A DNA stretch of 34,896 bases from a virus (lineage: Duplodnaviria; Heunggongvirae; Uroviricota; Caudoviricetes): IMG/VR virus record IMGVR_UViG_2548877009_000017, positions 1 to 34,896 of that record, one strand, 5' to 3'. Every line of letters starts with the position of its first letter. Position 1 is the stretch's first letter. The notes below the pieces were generated by a model. It saw only the letters and a list, made by a program, of their open reading frames with translations. It was not told the DNA's origin and did no database searches. This document shows positions 16,983 through 33,871 of this stretch, piece after piece. The translations under genes and the position numbers were made by a program.

Positions 16983-17506
16983 TTTCCGAATAAAGTGCTC
17001 ATTGGTGATGTTTCAATCTGGATTGCGCCGCCGTCTTTGCCGGTTAGCTCGTGAGAAGCTTGTTCTTTAAACGCCTGAACGTAAACATGCTTACCAAGAA
17101 GTTCGAGATTTTTGACCTTATCAGGCCATTTGATTTTCTTCAGAAGTGCGGTGCTATCTGCAGATACCATCTCCACGACATCCATTCCTGATAGCGTTGT
17201 GCGCCATACCTTAGGCCAGTCTTTAATGGGTTTTAGCTCACCGTTTTGCAGGAGAATGTCGAGCACATCCATCTGATCGATTTCAATAAGGCGATTAAGC
17301 ACATATTCTGCATTAATACCAACAAGATCATTGCGTTGCGCTTTCAGTTCGGCGATTCTGAATTGGATGTCAGGTTTTGACATGTTTTCGGATGCGGTAC
17401 GGTTAGCTGTCTTTGCGCTGTACCCCGCCCGAATAGCCGCTTGCGTGGCGTTTAAATCGATGAGGTACTCGCGACAGAACATTTCTTGCTTGTCGGTGAG
17501 TGCCAT
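16979..17506 (-). CDS. Terminase small subunit
   Basis: 175 aa directly upstream of and overlapping TerL; N-terminal region MALTDKQEMFCREYLIDLNATQAAIRAGYS typical of phage small terminase. Confidence 0.75.
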   Translation of the reverse strand: MALTDKQEMFCREYLIDLNATQAAIRAGYSAKTANRTASENMSKPDIQFRIAELKAQRNDLVGINAEYVLNRLIEIDQMDVLDILLQNGELKPIKDWPKVWRTTLSGMDVVEMVSADSTALLKKIKWPDKVKNLELLGKHVYVQAFKEQASHELTGKDGGAIQIETSPMSTLFGK

Positions 17507-17532
17507 TTTTTACTTCCCATAAGGAGATTGTT

Positions 17533-17715
17533 ATGAACGATGACTTTAAAACAGGTGACATTGTTAAACTGAAATCAGGCGGACCTGACATGACTATCAG
17601 GTCATTTTCATCTACCCACGGTAACTCTTTTCTTTGTCAATGGTTTGCTGGCAAGAAGCTTGAGCAAGGATATTTCAAACCGGAATCTCTTGAGCGCGTT
17701 ACCCCAAAGCCATAG
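17533..17715 (+). CDS. DUF2158/YodC-like small protein
   Basis: 60 aa; KSGGPDMT motif; ATG preceded by AAGGAG; antisense to the late operon. Confidence 0.55.
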   Translation: MNDDFKTGDIVKLKSGGPDMTIRSFSSTHGNSFLCQWFAGKKLEQGYFKPESLERVTPKP

Positions 17716-17759: not shown

Positions 17760-17999
17760 ATGATGTCCGTTTTATCAACAGATGGTTGCCTTTATCAGCA
17801 GGATGTTGTGGATTATCTCGTTAAACAACATAACGAGCAGCACCTCAAAGAAAATGCGGATGGCAACCAAGCGCTATCAACAAAAGTGATTAATAAATTC
17901 AGGGTTGATAGCGGTGAAAGTGTTGTTTGGGTTAAGCCAGATAAGTACTGGCGTTTCCGTGTGCCTGAAGACGAAAACGGTCGTGAAGCTCGCGGTTAA
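17760..17999 (+). CDS. Hypothetical protein
   Basis: 79-aa ORF on plus strand following the DUF2158 gene; no recognisable motif. Confidence 0.4.
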   Translation: MMSVLSTDGCLYQQDVVDYLVKQHNEQHLKENADGNQALSTKVINKFRVDSGESVVWVKPDKYWRFRVPEDENGREARG

Positions 18000-19156: not shown

Positions 19157-19624
19157 TCATCGAAGGCATTGCGTCCTGATGTATTCCTGAAGCGTTCTCA
19201 GTGCAGTTTGGTCGCGGATAATTCCGTCCCGGACACCGAGAACGTTTCGTCCAGCAACTGGAGAGAGTTCGACGGTGGCATCATTGCCCATGCCGGAGGC
19301 GCCGGAGGTTTCGGCTGAGGATGGCACAGGGCATTTTCCTTTGACGAGCACCCGACCACCATTATCAAGCTTGCGCCGAAGAGCATCATTTTCAGCTTTC
19401 GCATCAGCTAACTCCTTCGTGTATTTATCATCGAGTGCATCAGCATCACGCTGGCGCTGCTGCATGTCAGTAATGGTGGCGTTCGCCTTCTCCAGTTCAC
19501 TGGCCTTGTTATCGCGCTGTTCTTTGTAGGCGATTGCATTATCACGGTAATGATTAACAGCCCATGACAGGCAGACGATGATGCAGATAACCAGAGCGGA
19601 GATAATCGCGGTGACTCTGCTCAT
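19157..19624 (-). CDS. Rz: Rz spanin (inner membrane subunit)
   Basis: N-terminus [31 protein letters not shown] as in lambda Rz; N-terminal TM plus coiled coil; overlaps R stop. Confidence 0.85.
19198..19404 (-). CDS. Rz1: Rz1 spanin (outer membrane lipoprotein) embedded in Rz in +1 frame
   Basis: [21 protein letters not shown]... signal peptide with lipobox VVGC and proline-rich mature part, wholly inside Rz. Confidence 0.6.
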
Positions 19625-20097
19625 ACATCAATCTCTCTGACCGTTCCGCCCGCTTCTTTGAATTTTGCAATCAGGCTGTCAGCCTTATGCTCGAACTGAC
19701 CATAACCAGCGCCCGGCAGTGAAGCCCAGATATTGCTGCAACGGTCGATTGCCTGACGGATATCACCACGATCAATCATAGGTAAAGCGCCACGCTCCTT
19801 AATCTGCTGCAATGCCACAGCGTCCTGACTTTTCGGAGAGAAGTCTTTCAGGCCAAGCTGCTTGCGGTAGGCATCCCACCAACGGGAAAGAAGCTGGTAG
19901 CGTCCGGCGCCTGTTGATTTGAGTTTTGGGTTTAGCGTGACAAGTTTGCGAGGGTGATCGGAGTAATCAGTGAATAGCTCTCCGCCTACAATGACGTCAT
20001 AACCATGATTTCTGGTTTTCTGACGTCCGTTATCAGTTCCCTCCGACCACGCCAGCATATCGAGGAACGCCTTACGTTGATTATTGATTTCTACCAT
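19621..20097 (-). CDS. R: Endolysin, lambda R-type lytic transglycosylase
   Basis: 158 aa, [35 protein letters not shown]... essentially identical to remembered lambda R. Confidence 0.9.
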
Positions 20098-20404
20098 CTT
20101 CTACTCCGGCTTTTTTAGCAGCGAAGCGTTTGATAAGCGAACCAATCGAGTCAGTACCGATGTAGCCGATAAACACGCTCGTTATATAAGCGAGATTGCT
20201 ACTTAGTCCGGCGAAGTCGAGAAGGTCACGAATGAACCAGGCGATAATGGCGCACATCGTTGCGTCGATTACTGTTTTTGTAAACGCACCGCCATTATAT
20301 CTGCCGCGAAGGTACGCCATTGCAAACGCAAGGATTGCCCCGATGCCTTGTTCCTTTGCCGCGAGAATGGCGGCCAACAGGTCATGTTTTTCTGGCATCT
20401 TCAT
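20081..20404 (-). CDS. S: Holin/antiholin, lambda S-type with dual start
   Basis: 107 aa starting [20 protein letters not shown], near-identical to lambda S; Met1/Met3 dual-start motif; GGGGGTAAG upstream. Confidence 0.9.
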
Positions 20405-20646
20405 GTCTTACCCCCAATAAGGGGATTTGCTCTATTTAATTAGGAATAAGGTCGATTACTGATAGAACAAATCCAGGCTACTGTGTTTAGTAATCAGATT
20501 TGTTCGTGACCGATATGCACGGGCAAAACGGCAGGATGTTGTTAGCGCGACCTCCTGCCACCCGCTTTCACGAAGGTCATGTGTAGAAGGCCGCAGCGTA
20601 ACTATCACTGATGAATTCAGGATAGCCAGTGGCTACGGCTCAGTTA

Positions 20647-20722
20647 TGGTGCTGTTTAACGGACTTGAACCGCTACCCATTCGCTTACAAGGCGACCGCT
20701 CTACCATTGGAGCTAAAACAGC
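20647..20722 (-). tRNA. tRNA-Thr (anticodon UGU)
   Basis: 76 nt on minus strand folds into cloverleaf by hand: 7-bp acceptor stem, D-arm GCTC/GAGC, anticodon loop CTTGTAA, T-loop TTCAAGT, 3' ACCA encoded. Confidence 0.65.
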
Positions 20723-20727
20723 ATGTT

Positions 20728-20802
20728 TGGCGGGACAGCGTGGACTCGAACCACGATAAGAAGGTTAACAGCCTTCCGTAATCACCTTTATACGACTGAC
20801 CC
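20728..20802 (-). tRNA. tRNA-Asn (anticodon GUU)
   Basis: 75 nt on minus strand: anticodon stem GAAGG/CCTTC with loop CTGTTAA, T-arm CGTGG-TTCGAGT-CCACG, 3' GCCA encoded; acceptor and D stems each have one mismatch. Confidence 0.6.
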
Positions 20803-20865
20803 AAATAAAAAAAGCCACCGTTGCAACTTAAGAGTCACTAACGGCAGCTTACCTTCTAATTATGG

Positions 20866-21384
20866 CTAAATGGATAATTGCATGTCAAGGCTTTTAACAG
20901 CAACATGCTTAACTTTCTCAACACGTTTACGCATTTTGAAAGCATTTTGCATTGGCTGGTACAAAACAAATAACGATGCTTTCAGGATGTCGTCAATTTC
21001 GTTTCTACAGGTTGCCAGTGAAGGTTTTCTCCATCCCTCGCCACCACGTCCACACATCTTGCGTGGCTTTGCAGTCGCGTGATAGTAGGATGCAATTGCT
21101 CGCTTAGATGAACCATGAGCGTAGTAGCTGAGGAGGATGCCAAAGGCTTTCTTGTCAATGCACATGACGGAATCGACGACCTGAGAAATCAACATTCCAT
21201 CATCATCATTGCACATTGGCCTTGTCATAACTCTTCCCGGCTCTACGCTCTCCATGAACTTCGCTATTACGCTGCTCATGCGCTTTTCCAGACGACCTGA
21301 ATAAACCCATGCGCCCCACAGTTCAAGCCAGCCATTCAGCCACTCATGCTGTTCTTTGGTGAGGTTTAGTTCTCTTATGCCCAC
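20866..21384 (-). CDS. Late-gene antiterminator Q (P22 gp23 type)
   Basis: WLELWGAW and CNDDDGMLI motifs resemble P22 gp23; directly upstream of tRNAs and lysis genes; probable GTG start preceded by GGGAGAAGG. Confidence 0.75.
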
Positions 21385-30549: not shown

Positions 30550-30720
30550 ATGCAACAGTTCGCTATTGCAGGGGCGGCATCGGTTCGCCCTTTCAACCCG
30601 ATTTTATCGGTACAGCATTCACGAAAAAACATTTTAACCGGAGCAGACTTTAAACAACCAAGAATGAAAAGCTTGCTCGAAAAGCTTTGGGATATTTTGA
30701 AACAACAAGGCCGTCCATGA
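30550..30720 (+). CDS. cIII: CIII-like protein
   Basis: 56 aa MQQFAIAGAAS...LLEKLWDILKQQGRP parallels lambda CIII (MQYAIAGW...LIDILNQPG); AAGGAG before ATG. Confidence 0.6.
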   Translation: MQQFAIAGAASVRPFNPILSVQHSRKNILTGADFKQPRMKSLLEKLWDILKQQGRP

Positions 30721-30875
30721 GTTTTACGGATAACTTGTCAGACGAAGAATTCATTCGTCAGATAAAAGAATTAATCGGTAACGAAGGAGATATTCATGTC
30801 ACTTGCAACCACAGTGAAGGAGAGCAAGTTACAGAGACGCATGTACACGCAGAAAGCTCTCTGGTATCGCCATAA
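30717..30875 (+). CDS. Hypothetical small acidic protein
   Basis: 52-aa ORF with ATGA overlap onto cIII-like stop. Confidence 0.4.
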   Translation: MSFTDNLSDEEFIRQIKELIGNEGDIHVTCNHSEGEQVTETHVHAESSLVSP

Positions 30876-30976
30876 TGGTGACCGCGAAGGAATGCGGGTA
30901 TGCCTTAATTTGTCCCGAGTCGAAGTATTAAATCAGCGTTATTTCCTTGGGCCGTGTCCATTCTGAGAGCAATCAT

Positions 30977-31582
30977 ATGAGCAAAGAATTTTACGCAAGA
31001 CTGGCAGCTATTCAGGAGAATCTGAACGCGCCAAAGAATCAGTACAACTCATTCGGCAAATATAAATACAGAAGCTGCGAAGATATTCTTGAAGGCGTTA
31101 AGCCGTTACTGAACGGTCTGTTTTTATCAATCAGCGATGAAGTTGTGTTGATTGGTGATCGGTATTACGTGAAAGCCACGGCAACTATTACCGATGGCGA
31201 AAACAGTCATACGGCAACCGCTCTTGCACGAGAGGAAGAAAGCAAGAAAGGAATGGATTCTGCACAAGTTACGGGAGCTACAAGCTCTTATGCACGCAAG
31301 TATTGCCTCAATGGTTTGTTCGGCATTGATGATGCGAAAGATGCAGATACAGACGAGCATAAACATCAGCAGAACGCAGCAGCAAAGCAATCAAAACCAT
31401 CACTTACACCTGAACAGGTTCTAAAAGCATTCACTGACGCAGCAATGCAGAAAAACACCGTAGAAGAGCTTAAACAGGCGTTCGCCAAAGCGTGGAAGAT
31501 GCTCGAAGGGACGCCGGAGCAGCACAAAGCGCAGGACGTTTACAACATCAGACGAGACGAATTAGAAGGGGCAACTGCTTAA
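30977..31582 (+). CDS. erf: Erf single-strand annealing recombinase
   Basis: MSKEFYARLAAIQENLNAPKNQYNSFGKYKYRSCEDILEGVKPLL... closely parallels P22 Erf. Confidence 0.85.
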   Translation: MSKEFYARLAAIQENLNAPKNQYNSFGKYKYRSCEDILEGVKPLLNGLFLSISDEVVLIGDRYYVKATATITDGENSHTATALAREEESKKGMDSAQVTGATSSYARKYCLNGLFGIDDAKDADTDEHKHQQNAAAKQSKPSLTPEQVLKAFTDAAMQKNTVEELKQAFAKAWKMLEGTPEQHKAQDVYNIRRDELEGATA

Positions 31583-31965
31583 TGGCACATTCGATTACAG
31601 TAAGACTAAACAAACCCGCAAGAGAGTTTCAGGGCGGGGAAAATATCGGATTCAACATCCGTGCTGGCGTTCAGTATTACGATCGCCAGACAAAAAAGAA
31701 AGAATGGACAAACTACAGCGCCGTTGTATTTGCCAAGCCGGGAGCGCAAGCGGATTACTATCGTAGCGTTCTGGTTGAAGGAGGCATTGTAGAAATTACC
31801 GGAGAAAACATCAGGGTTGATGTTTATCAGGGGCAAAATGGTCAATCAATCACTCTTGAATTACTGAATGCAAAGATTGGATTTGCAACTTCAGGAAACA
31901 GCCAACAGCAGCAAAGTAGCAATCATCAAAATAATCCTGAATACGACGATTCCATCCCATTCTGA
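31582..31965 (+). CDS. Single-stranded DNA-binding protein (short SSB)
   Basis: 127 aa with OB-fold-like core and canonical acidic C-terminal tail ...PEYDDSIPF; TAATG overlap with erf stop. Confidence 0.7.
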   Translation: MAHSITVRLNKPAREFQGGENIGFNIRAGVQYYDRQTKKKEWTNYSAVVFAKPGAQADYYRSVLVEGGIVEITGENIRVDVYQGQNGQSITLELLNAKIGFATSGNSQQQQSSNHQNNPEYDDSIPF

Positions 31966-31988
31966 TTTAGAAAAATAAGGATTTAATT

Positions 31989-32285
31989 ATGCCAGCGCCT
32001 TTGTATGGTGCGGATGACCCGCGCCGCTGTTCCGGCAATTCCGTATCGGAGGTGCTGGATAAATTCAGAAAAAACTACGATCGAATAATGTCTCTACCGC
32101 AGGAAACGAAAGAGGAAAAGGAATTTCGCCACTGTATATGGCTTGCAGAGAAAGAAGAACGCGAGCGAATTTACCAGACATCAATCCGACCATTCCGCAA
32201 AGCCACATATACCCACTTCCCTGAATATATCGACCCGCGCCTGCGTAATTACCGCTCACGCTATGGCGCTATCAGTAATGACTGA
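31989..32285 (+). CDS. Hypothetical protein (in the position of P22 abc2)
   Basis: 98-aa ORF with AAGGA before ATG. Confidence 0.45.
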   Translation: MPAPLYGADDPRRCSGNSVSEVLDKFRKNYDRIMSLPQETKEEKEFRHCIWLAEKEERERIYQTSIRPFRKATYTHFPEYIDPRLRNYRSRYGAISND

Positions 32286-32379
32286 GGAATTTACCATGAG
32301 AGGACTTGCTTAAGAGAAAGAGTTTCGGTTCTGTTAATGACAACAAATATCTGAATGCGATGTGGCGGAGTGGGAAGAA

Positions 32380-32778
32380 ATGAAACAAATGTCACTAATT
32401 GAGATGGATGGATTTCTGAAAGGTAAATGCATCCCACGAGATTTAAAGGTTAACGAAACAAACGCTGAATATCTGGTGCGTAAATTTGCTGAAGCGGAGG
32501 CCAAGTGCGCGGCGCTGGCTGCTGAAGTTGAGGCTGTGAAATCAGCACATCAAGATGCTGTAAACACCATCTTGTATACCGCCAATCGAACGGGTGTTTT
32601 ATACACAGAGAAGACAATTCAAATGTCCTGCAAAACCCCGGCCACCGACGCCTTCCTGGCTGAAGTGCGGGCGCAAGGGGTAGAGATGATGCGCGAACAT
32701 CCATCAATCAAACTTTGCTCTTTGACGCACATATGTGACGAGTTAGCCGCCCAGCTTCGCAAAGGAGGCAACCAATGA
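32380..32778 (+). CDS. Hypothetical protein
   Basis: 132 aa from ATG 32380 (track start 32362 is GTG); GGAG upstream. Confidence 0.45.
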   Translation: MKQMSLIEMDGFLKGKCIPRDLKVNETNAEYLVRKFAEAEAKCAALAAEVEAVKSAHQDAVNTILYTANRTGVLYTEKTIQMSCKTPATDAFLAEVRAQGVEMMREHPSIKLCSLTHICDELAAQLRKGGNQ

Positions 32779-33380
32779 GCAAGATTGACTATCAGGCACT
32801 GCGTGAAAAGGCAGAGAAAGCAACGAGTGGTGTGTGGTCGCTCGAATATGGAGAGGAGGGATTTGATGGTGATGATGCACTAATTCATCGCGAGGCTGCT
32901 GGATATATTCCCATTTGCAGAATTGAAGGAGCACATCCAGAAAGCGGTTTCGATGAAGATTTCCAAATGGAACAGCAGGCCAATGCTGAATTCATCGCCG
33001 CAGCCAATCCGGCTACCGTCTTGGCGCTGCTGGATGAGCTGGAAGCAGCAGAGAAGCGAAACGCTGAATTACAAAGCGAGAATGCATACATCCGCAACCG
33101 GTACAAAGAACTGGACCTATTAATCGGGAAAAACATTCTGGTCATGCAGGCTGCCATTATCGAATGGCAGGCAACTGGCGACGCTAAGAGCGGACTGGCA
33201 TGGATTTATAACACACTGTTTGGCCCTGGCGAATTACCGGACGAATCTGAGAAAGATGCTCAGGCCTACTTTAATCGCAAATATGCACCGATTGACGAAA
33301 AGCTTATGGCGCTTCACAAGTGGTTTTGGGAACAAAGTGAAGCCGAGCGCGCCGCTGGCATCAAGGAGGAGTCTGAGTGA
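32775..33380 (+). CDS. Ead/Ea22-like protein
   Basis: N-terminus MSKIDYQALREKAEKATSGVWSLEY typical of Ead/Ea22-like family; coiled-coil centre. Confidence 0.6.
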   Translation: MSKIDYQALREKAEKATSGVWSLEYGEEGFDGDDALIHREAAGYIPICRIEGAHPESGFDEDFQMEQQANAEFIAAANPATVLALLDELEAAEKRNAELQSENAYIRNRYKELDLLIGKNILVMQAAIIEWQATGDAKSGLAWIYNTLFGPGELPDESEKDAQAYFNRKYAPIDEKLMALHKWFWEQSEAERAAGIKEESE

Positions 33381-33871
33381 TGGTCATTTCACCTATAACG
33401 CTGAAAGCGGCGCAGGAATTTATCGCACAGCACCACCGACACAATAAACCACCAGTGGGGCATAAATTCAGCATTGGTCTGAGAAATAATGCCGGAGAAT
33501 TGATAGGTGTGGCGACAGCTGGTCGACCTGTTGCACGACATTTGGACGATGGATTAACGCTTGAAGTAAATCGCACATGTACCACAGGAGAACGCAACGC
33601 TAACAGCGCGCTTTATGGTGCTGTCTGGCGGGCAGCAAAAGCTATGGGTTATCAACGTTGTATTACGTACACCCAGGCAGATGAATCAGGAGCATCTCTT
33701 CGCGCAGCTGGTTTTGTTCGTGTGAAAGAGCTTCCTCCAAGAAAAAGCTGGGCGGAATCAAGCGTCGCCCTGCGGAGTAAACGCGATCCGGTCGGAAACG
33801 GTGGTATTCCTCGTGTGCTCTGGGAAATCAGGAGAATGAGTACCACTGGCATTCGCACCAAAGGAGAGTGA
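33380..33871 (+). CDS. Hypothetical protein
   Basis: 163-aa ORF from ATG 33380 overlapping the preceding stop; no confident family assignment. Confidence 0.45.
   Translation: MVISPITLKAAQEFIAQHHRHNKPPVGHKFSIGLRNNAGELIGVATAGRPVARHLDDGLTLEVNRTCTTGERNANSALYGAVWRAAKAMGYQRCITYTQADESGASLRAAGFVRVKELPPRKSWAESSVALRSKRDPVGNGGIPRVLWEIRRMSTTGIRTKGE

Follow-up and report, generated by a model that had tools for sequence, protein, structure and literature searches.

Lambdoid phage tRNA-Thr(UGU) alleles were found in 2025-2026 to replace a host tRNA that is destroyed by OLD, the nuclease of P2 prophages. Phage tRNA-Thr(UGU) genes rescue OLD-affected cells by replacing thrU, the phage 21 tRNA-Thr ("tRNAThr21") protects against OLD, and a UGU anticodon is needed to decode ACA, as shown for another rescue tRNA (PMC12445682). 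The tRNA-Thr(UGU) of phage HK446 also has strong counter-defence activity (preprint 10.64898/2026.07.10.737580). Host-type tRNA-Thr(UGU) did not rescue, whereas phage alleles did (PMC12445682; preprint 10.64898/2026.07.10.737580). Here, we describe a tandem tRNA-Asn(GUU)/tRNA-Thr(UGU) pair in a 34,896-nt stretch of viral DNA (IMG/VR record IMGVR_UViG_2548877009_000017, positions 1 to 34,896), which we refer to as the window. It comes from an Escherichia coli P22-like (HK620/Sf6-like) podophage or prophage, with mosaic relationships to HK620, Sf6, CUS-3, and recent Lederbergvirus isolates, and int and the attachment site are outside it. On balance, we favor the view that the pair is a cassette dependent on the late antiterminator Q and encodes two functional tRNAs that both add to and stand in for host tRNAs during late expression.

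A second nuclease, AriB of the PARIS system, targets the tRNAs for lysine (UUU), threonine (UGU), and asparagine (GUU) at the site U36AAUC|N41, and a U39A change abolishes cleavage. Full rescue takes all three phage T5 tRNAs, and tRNA-Lys(UUU) is needed for escape from the characterized PARIS system (PMC12409363). tRNA-Asn(GUU) is also among the substrates for which P2-OLD cleavage kinetics were compared to those of thrU (PMC12445682). The pair itself is a known, annotated feature. It has been annotated, in GenBank and RefSeq records, in Sf6 (in 2004, as "similar to phage 21"), phage 21, BTP1, SPN9CC, vB_SosS_Oslo, Bas106, and others, PGAP labels tRNA-Asn and tRNA-Thr in hundreds of E. coli prophages, and these tRNAs are noted in the genome papers on epsilon34 and phage L. 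The pairs of Sf6, phage 21, BTP1, and HK446 have the same genes, order, and 5-nt spacing as the window and the same place directly 3' of the late terminator tR'. The window tRNA-Asn is identical to their allele at 74/75 positions (one D-loop position is G in the window and C in theirs), and its tRNA-Thr is identical to the phage 21/HK446 allele at 73/76.

ARAGORN was run over the whole window and predicted exactly two tRNA genes, both on the minus strand. tRNA-Asn(GUU) (20728..20802) is 75 nt long, with an encoded CCA, discriminator G73, and a 4-nt variable loop. tRNA-Thr(UGU) (20647..20722) is 76 nt long, also with an encoded CCA, and is of the tRNAThr21 type. Between them on the same strand is the 5-nt spacer AACAT (20723..20727), which varies among relatives. 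Both genes also had full-length Rfam matches to RF00005 (model positions 1-71; gathering score, 29), with 61.2 bits for tRNA-Thr (E = 4.6e-11) and 55.3 bits for tRNA-Asn (E = 1.9e-9). These E-values are window-wide, and both matches are far above chance. An Rfam scan of the whole window found no family besides tRNA, and a permissive search (E ≤ 5) of 20350-20950 revealed neither a third or decayed tRNA nor a different RNA family. The original prediction had been made by folding the sequence by hand. It had proposed this tandem pair at 20647-20802, separated by 5 nt, on the late-operon strand between Q and the holin gene S. The tRNA-predictor check that it called for returned the same isotypes and outer coordinates, and the gap and gene order also held up.

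Both tRNAs have the core nucleotides U8, G18G19, and U33, the T-loop UUCRA, and the 3' CCA, as seen in the sequence and in the cmscan alignment. The same alignment showed the mismatches that the original prediction had noticed in the acceptor and D stems of tRNA-Asn (U4.U69 and U13.U22, respectively) and one in tRNA-Thr at the top of the anticodon stem (G27.A43). Folding of single sequences by minimum free energy did not produce cloverleaves, even for host tRNAs. Therefore, we judged integrity by covariance-model scores and covariation.

Related loci were retrieved from IMG/VR by a pattern scan using the 5' part of tRNA-Asn (positions 1-27 held fixed, except 6, 7, and 20), which gave at least 119 loci. 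Among the matches listed, to which the IMG/VR allele and locus counts here refer, there were 20 distinct tRNA-Thr alleles and 19 distinct tRNA-Asn alleles. For tRNA-Thr, 94.5% of pair cells were standard, and four pairs were compensatory (3-70, 5-68, 6-67, and 51-63). Its covariation score was reached by none of 500 shuffles and was above all slid controls. For tRNA-Asn, 90.2% of cells were paired, three pairs were compensatory (6-67, 7-66, and 28-42), and again 0/500 shuffles reached the score. Position 4-69 of tRNA-Asn was U4.U69 in 16/19 alleles, U4 opposite C69 in two, and U4-G69 in one, and U13.U22 was invariant by construction because of the retrieval pattern. Nucleotide diversity (pi) was 0.016 to 0.028 in the tRNAs (0.016 at tRNA-Asn positions 28-75), compared with 0.14 for the 5-nt spacer and 0.15 over the 66 nt that follow, with the flank values partly inflated by mosaic replacement. 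One tRNA-Asn allele made up 78/116 copies. Both genes are elongator tRNAs by RF00005 score, compensatory stems, core nucleotides, and CCA, and they are genuine and intact. The covariation and low diversity suggest selection on both, as the favored view would predict.

The identity set for E. coli ThrRS is G1-C72, C2-G71, G35, and U36. It is intact in the window tRNA-Thr, which has the acceptor stem GCUGUUU...AAACAGC and anticodon UGU. We compared this allele with tRNAThr21, using the sequence in the phage 21 genome record (one tRNA-Thr is annotated in the inspected part, 37.5-42.9 kb); the HK446 allele is identical to that of phage 21. The window tRNA shares the UGU anticodon, G1-C72, and C2-G71 with tRNAThr21 and differs from it only by a compensatory change of G5-C68 to U5-A68 and by A26G. 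The anticodon stem-loops (positions 27-43) are identical (GUCGC CUUGUAA GCGAA). Positions 28-30 and 40-42 are UCG and CGA in the window tRNA-Thr, whereas they are CUG and CAG in host thrU (C28U/G42A). The C28U/G42A change and a stem shortened by G27.A43 are the features reported to be behind the resistance of the phage 21 tRNA-Thr (PMC12445682). The window tRNA has the UGU anticodon, the same positions 28-30/40-42, and the unpaired 27-43. By sequence, it is a member of the tRNAThr21 type and a candidate for the same OLD resistance. G27.A43 and U28-A42 were invariant in 20/20 tRNA-Thr alleles, including those with remodeled acceptor stems, and decoding alone gives no obvious reason for this.

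The window also encodes homologues of a locus that triggers OLD. Gp33 of the HK75/HK446 recombination locus is an OLD trigger, and HK446 Gp27 (Oad2) is an OLD inhibitor (preprint 10.64898/2026.07.10.737580). By tblastn with HK446 proteins, the early-left region of the window has, on the plus strand, a Gp33-like protein (30717-30875; 85% identity), Erf (about 30977-31579; 99%), a Gp31-like protein (31582-31962; 98%), and the Abc2 anti-RecBCD protein (31989-32285; 97%). Together they form a Gp33-Erf-Gp31-Abc2 locus at 30717..32285 (PHROGs 2123, 155, and 656), so the window phage should provoke OLD. Full-length Oad2 was absent from the window by tblastn. Only its N-terminal 36 residues matched, and the match (32380-32487) is where another open reading frame (ORF), one of 138 amino acids (32362-32778), starts. 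With the trigger present and the known protein inhibitor absent, protection by a tRNA route is plausible.

For E. coli AsnRS, the identity set is G34, U35, U36, and discriminator G73. It is intact in the window tRNA-Asn, which has anticodon GUU and G73 before CCA. However, the rest of this tRNA is nearer to E. coli glyT (54/78) than to asnT (48/78). glyT, which encodes tRNA-Gly(UCC), shares the D-arm UCGUAUAAnGGnnAUUAC, including C9 and U13.U22, and the 4-nt variable loop. Assignment to Asn is therefore based on the anticodon and discriminator, and the tRNA looks like a Gly-like scaffold bearing an Asn anticodon and G73. The original prediction had suggested that the stem mismatches might make tRNA-Asn atypical or partly decayed. 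Decay is not supported, judging by the compensatory pairs, the recurrence of U4.U69, and the occurrence of the same D-arm in glyT.

The anticodon arms of both window tRNAs have substitutions at the AriB site, including U39. The site is UAAUCA in host tRNA-Thr and UAAUCC in host tRNA-Asn, whereas the phage tRNAs have UAAGCG (G39/G41) and UAACCU (C39/U41), respectively. Host asnT also has the paired CNG motif CGG/CCG, where the phage tRNA-Asn has AAG/CUU. Therefore, the tRNA-Asn anticodon arm, as a sequence, fits a resistant replacement.

The position of the pair suggests how it would be controlled. On the minus strand the transcription order is Q, the late promoter PR', tR', tRNA-Asn, tRNA-Thr, and S. 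The Q-like late antiterminator (20866..21384, minus strand; 172 amino acids) matches PHROG 943, "anti-termination protein Q-like" (E = 5e-93). It is of the Sf6/BTP1/L type, with a homologue annotated in Sf6 and BTP1, and is related to phage 21 Q. PR' (20859..20888, minus strand; TTGACA, 18 nt, CATAAT) matches 11/12 sigma-70 positions and overlaps the end of Q, and there is no other sigma-70-like site in 20300-21000. It lines up with PR' as annotated in Sf6 and phage 21 and would place the late transcription start at about 20852. The approximately 50-nt late leader that follows (20803..20852, minus strand) contains a qut/pause region and the intrinsic terminator tR', as judged by its fold and by homology. 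In the tR' hairpin, which has 17 bp, GCTGCCGTT (20848-20840) pairs with AACGGTGGC (20822-20814). The U-run TTTTTTTATTT (20813-20803) is directly 3' of the hairpin, and tRNA-Asn begins directly after it. The leader RNA fold has a free energy of -20.2 kcal/mol (z = -5.4). A simple terminator scan of 20300-21000 found nothing and so missed tR'.

From TAAGCTGCC on, this leader and terminator are 100% identical to those of phage 21. The phage 21 record annotates the transcription start, sigma-dependent pause element, and terminator from experiments (terminator, PMID 1704887). The sequence 5' of the start resembles the Sf6/BTP1 type, not phage 21, in keeping with a different Q-binding element; the phage L paper makes the same point.

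The pair occupies the same junction behind different terminators. In a three-way alignment of the window, lambda, and HK446, it stands exactly where lambda has 163 nt of other sequence (44782-44944), between the tR' U-run and a late leader that is common to all three and runs to the S start codon. ARAGORN found no tRNA remnant in these 163 nt of lambda. HK446 carries the pair at this junction as well, although its Q, PR', and tR' are of the lambda type. In IMG/VR, the cassette was behind a 21-type tR' in at least 80 loci and a lambda-type tR' in at least 14. Therefore, the pair is a mobile cassette with a constant position directly 3' of tR'. A 221-nt module comprising the leader and both tRNAs was present at ≥80% coverage in 262/5,426 complete E. 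coli genomes (about 5%), four of which had it with 100% identity, and the window tRNA-Thr allele occurred in at least three IMG/VR contigs. At least 92 loci had Asn-Thr only, at least six had tRNA-Asn alone, and others had an extra tRNA-Gly(UCC) (at least nine), tRNA-Phe(GAA) (at least nine), or tRNA-Arg(UCU) (at least eight). The glyT-like Gly(UCC) of these variants retains the host CAG/CUG motif, so we do not claim OLD resistance for it.

Of the IMG/VR loci listed, 25 had neither tR' type. About 12 of them share another upstream sequence ending in ...GAGCCCTGAACCAGATTGA, and a few follow further terminator-like T-runs. This group includes expansions with Phe(GAA) and Arg(UCU), comparable to Klebsiella phage Mulock (801-1120 of the retrieved segment).

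The second tRNA is less constant than the first. ST64T, L, and JLK-2012 keep tRNA-Asn but have a replaced or rearranged second tRNA. In ST64T and phage L it is not Thr. The ST64T copy (938-1010 of the retrieved segment) was not called by ARAGORN, and the phage L paper reports anticodon UAA (Leu) from tRNAscan-SE. The 5' acceptor and D-arm of this second tRNA are still tRNA-Thr sequence. The annotated tRNA-Thr of JLK-2012 (929-1004 of the retrieved segment) was also missed by ARAGORN and is chimeric, with a 5' part from the phage allele and a thrU-like 3' part containing G42U and U43C, which alter the CNG motif and shorten the stem. One IMG/VR allele is a clean recombinant with a phage 5' part and a thrU 3' part. 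In JLK-2012, the chimera is followed by a glyT-like tRNA-Gly(UCC) (1008-1082 of the retrieved segment) and then tciA/tciB. This layout echoes the Asn-Thr ... tciABC-Ile order of phage P1 (2425-4085 of the retrieved P1 segment).

Shiga toxin (Stx) phages 933W and 2851 have tRNAs (ileZ-argN-argO) in the same slot, just 3' of tR' and before stx, with the same Q-dependent late logic. Their isoacceptors differ from those of the window: Ile (CAU, which ARAGORN calls Met), Arg(UCG), and Arg(UCU). Stx-phage tRNAs have classically been attributed to rare-codon supply. The Stx2c phage 2851 has a 21-type leader and tR' followed by only the first 24 nt of tRNA-Asn (about 1250-1273 of the retrieved segment), and then unrelated sequence with the Ile/Arg/Arg tRNAs and stx2. 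The remnant looks like a recombination scar, which would make the slot an exchange hotspot.

In the mechanism we propose, the tRNAs would be transcribed only when Q lets RNA polymerase pass tR', a dependence suggested by the anatomy of the locus. Host tRNA-processing enzymes would presumably then excise both tRNAs from the late transcript, and both are presumed to be charged. The anticodon stem of thrU is cut by PARIS AriB and by the Toprim nucleases of the OLD family that resident P2-like prophages encode. The phage tRNA-Thr would stand in for this single-copy host gene, which is the best-supported benefit, and would also cover a bottleneck in ACA supply in late genes. For tRNA-Asn we infer the same logic of replacement and supplementation, with host tRNA-Asn as a secondary PARIS target and the phage tRNA-Asn lacking both published cleavage motifs. 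The role of the Thr member draws on published experiments in which the alleles shared its anticodon arm, whereas that of the Asn member is a presumption of ours.

Several observations weigh against this mechanism. By itself, a viral tRNA-Thr failed to rescue lambda or to relieve OLD toxicity in recB-deficient cells (preprint 10.64898/2026.07.10.737580), and the phage L authors state that excision of the tRNAs from late mRNA is not established. There is no tRNA-Lys(UUU) among the tRNAs found by ARAGORN and Rfam in the 34.9-kb window, so the pair cannot be a full PARIS-escape set. A T5 tRNA-Lys that was given back the E. coli cleavage site was still not cleaved by AriB (PMC12409363), which weakens resistance predictions based on the anticodon stem-loop. 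Klebsiella-type tRNA-Asn alleles restore a paired CNG motif (CAG/CUG), and in P1 the tRNA-Asn keeps UAAUCA and the tRNA-Thr keeps CUG/CAG. Therefore, the "resistance" pattern in the anticodon stem is not universal. Our literature search found no experiment on the window allele or on any tRNA-Asn allele. Finally, codon demand alone could account for retention of the tRNAs.

That last point is the basis of the main rival, in which the tRNAs only raise the supply for late-gene codons and have nothing to do with defense. We compared codon usage in 18 late ORFs (5,895 codons) with that in 41 annotated K-12 genes. ACA was used 18.5 times per 1,000 codons in the late genes (31% of Thr codons) versus 5.4 (10%) in the K-12 sample. 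By ratio, this 3.2-fold enrichment is the fourth largest, and ACA comes third when codons are ordered by absolute excess. Asn codons (AAC plus AAU) were also raised, at 52.8 versus 37.7 per 1,000. ACA decoding depends on a single-copy, low-abundance host tRNA. A codon-supply role for the Asn tRNA was proposed by the phage L authors. The codon-supply reading therefore has real support and is compatible with replacement, because high ACA use is what would make the loss of thrU so damaging. However, the most over-represented rare codons (AGA, 4.5-fold; AGG, 3.6-fold; UCA, 3.5-fold; AUA, 2.7-fold; GGA, 2.6-fold) have no tRNA in the window, and the host already has four tRNA-Asn genes, so supply alone is a poor explanation for why Asn was chosen. 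Nor are the invariant G27.A43 and U28-A42 needed for decoding, whereas they are at positions tied to OLD resistance, and supply does not predict that a host-type tRNA-Thr(UGU) would fail where phage alleles succeed. We regard supply as the whole explanation as possible but rather doubtful. The original prediction had linked the pair to late-gene translation and suggested the comparison with host codon usage. The ACA and Asn enrichment is compatible with that idea, but it is incomplete, because nearly identical tRNA-Thr alleles replace OLD-cleaved thrU.

The cloverleaves might instead serve as punctuation, with RNase P/RNase E cleavage signals that free the late mRNA of the leader for Q loading and of the terminator hairpin, and with decoding as a secondary matter. 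tRNA-Asn directly follows the terminator U-run in every context, and 3' of tRNA-Thr there is a strongly structured late leader (20405..20646, minus strand; 242 nt) that is homologous to lambda 44945-45185. This leader has an RNA fold z of -5.85 and no Rfam match, and its elements include a hairpin at about 20589-20641 and a stem-loop at the S ribosome-binding site (20412-20424). However, lambda has the same flanking leader and no tRNA, so the late operon does not need the tRNAs. The anticodons, identity elements, and CCA are conserved, and the Thr alleles work as decoders in the published rescue assays. We consider a role in processing improbable.

Even less probable is that tRNA-Asn is a decaying pseudogene hitchhiking beside a functional tRNA-Thr. 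It has the two stem mismatches, a few rare IMG/VR alleles are damaged (for example, by U33A, a 1-nt deletion, or C61A), and it was overlooked in HK446, which the 2026 preprint describes as encoding a single tRNA (10.64898/2026.07.10.737580). ARAGORN found both HK446 tRNAs, which are unannotated in NC_019714, at 1211-1285 and 1291-1366 of the retrieved segment. A pseudogene would not be expected to score as tRNA-Asn does, to be dominated by one allele, or to combine compensatory pairs with such low diversity. Its G34-U35-U36, G73, and CCA are intact, most alleles have U4.U69, and the U13.U22 D-arm is that of a functional glyT. Furthermore, it is tRNA-Asn that ST64T, L, and JLK-2012 keep.

The weakest rival is that the genes are host tRNA fragments from an attachment site or spare copies that offset a host tRNA gene that integration has disrupted; tRNA genes are integration sites for many P22-like phages, the HK446 attP resembles thrW, and such compensation has been suggested for HK446 (preprint 10.64898/2026.07.10.737580), but we find it hardly credible, as both genes are full length, are only 62% and 69% identical to host asnT and thrU, respectively, and sit between Q and S, within the late leader, behind a terminator that should keep them silent in a lysogen. 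The same cassette also occurs across phages with different attachment sites (argW for Sf6, icd for phage 21, and a thrW-like attP in HK446). The anticodon of thrW is not UGU. A duplicated 3' fragment of a host tRNA at an attachment site, which the original prediction had named as the finding that would overturn it, is excluded by the full-length genes, their identity to host genes, and their position.

S, the first late protein gene 3' of the tRNAs, is a lambda-type dual-start holin gene (20081..20404, minus strand) with lambda S homology and a match to PHROG 126 holin/anti-holin (E = 1e-40). It is followed on the same strand by R (19621-20097) and Rz (19157-19624). A terminator-like hairpin in the late leader (20524-20559), which has GGCAGGAGG...CCTGCC and then GTTTTG, is also present in lambda. 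Its 3' arm has one uncompensated C-to-A difference from lambda, HK446, and Sf6. Elsewhere in the window, two plus-strand ORFs that match function-unassigned families (17500-17715, 71 amino acids, PHROG 3261; 17760-17999, 79 amino acids, PHROG 10782) oppose the late operon, in a moron-like placement with genes of the lysis region on one side and the small terminase gene on the other. An O-acetyltransferase-like ORF (1-987, plus strand; PHROG 3333, E = 3e-10) adjoins the tailspike gene and may be a serotype-conversion gene comparable to Sf6 oac. The early-left region also encodes a Mom-like DNA-modification protein (33377-33871, plus strand; PHROG 1384, E = 1e-43).

Two other phages provide comparisons for the pair as a unit. 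The PARIS-evading set of T5 (PMC12409363) shares two of its three tRNA species with the window, and both window tRNAs, like those of T5, lack U39 of the AriB site. However, T5 is lytic and has about 24 tRNAs, whereas the window represents a temperate phage that has a two-gene late-promoter cassette and no tRNA-Lys, and at 61 to 63% identity the T5 and window tRNA sequences are not closely related. P1, a temperate coliphage, has a tRNA-Asn(GUU) gene adjacent to a tRNA-Thr(UGU) gene in the same order, together with a tRNA-Ile in the C1-controlled ban operon, and in P1, as in lambdoid phage JLK-2012, the tRNAs are followed by tciA/tciB. The P1 tRNA-Thr is 79% identical to that of the window, but the P1 tRNA-Asn is unrelated in sequence (58%). 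The P1 genes are early and C1 repressed, whereas the window cassette is late, and their anticodon stems are host-like, unlike those of the window.

The published substrate lists of P2-OLD and AriB both include Thr(UGU) and Asn(GUU). We tentatively propose that tRNA-Asn forms the other half of a minimal counter-defense cassette, modular and Q dependent, against ABC-ATPase/Toprim tRNases, including P2-OLD, PARIS AriB, and their relatives. In that case, the Gly(UCC)-like scaffold would present Asn decoding on a body that the nuclease does not recognize. The Asn-Thr pair of the unrelated P1 would reflect convergent pressure from the same nuclease class, and the Gly(UCC) expansions would reflect it too, Gly(UCC) being another reported OLD target. 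This is a possibility rather than our expectation, and our literature search found no paper discussing tRNA-Asn in a defense context.

What makes the locus of interest is the recent finding that lambdoid tRNA-Thr(UGU) alleles replace thrU. The window is a natural setting of that allele family: behind tR', in a phage with an OLD-trigger locus, no full-length Oad2, and ACA-rich late genes. tRNA-Asn, overlooked in the HK446 paper, is conserved in most cassette variants. If it proves to be nuclease resistant, two-tRNA cassettes in temperate phages would mark the tRNase specificities in enterobacterial prophage and satellite defense hotspots.

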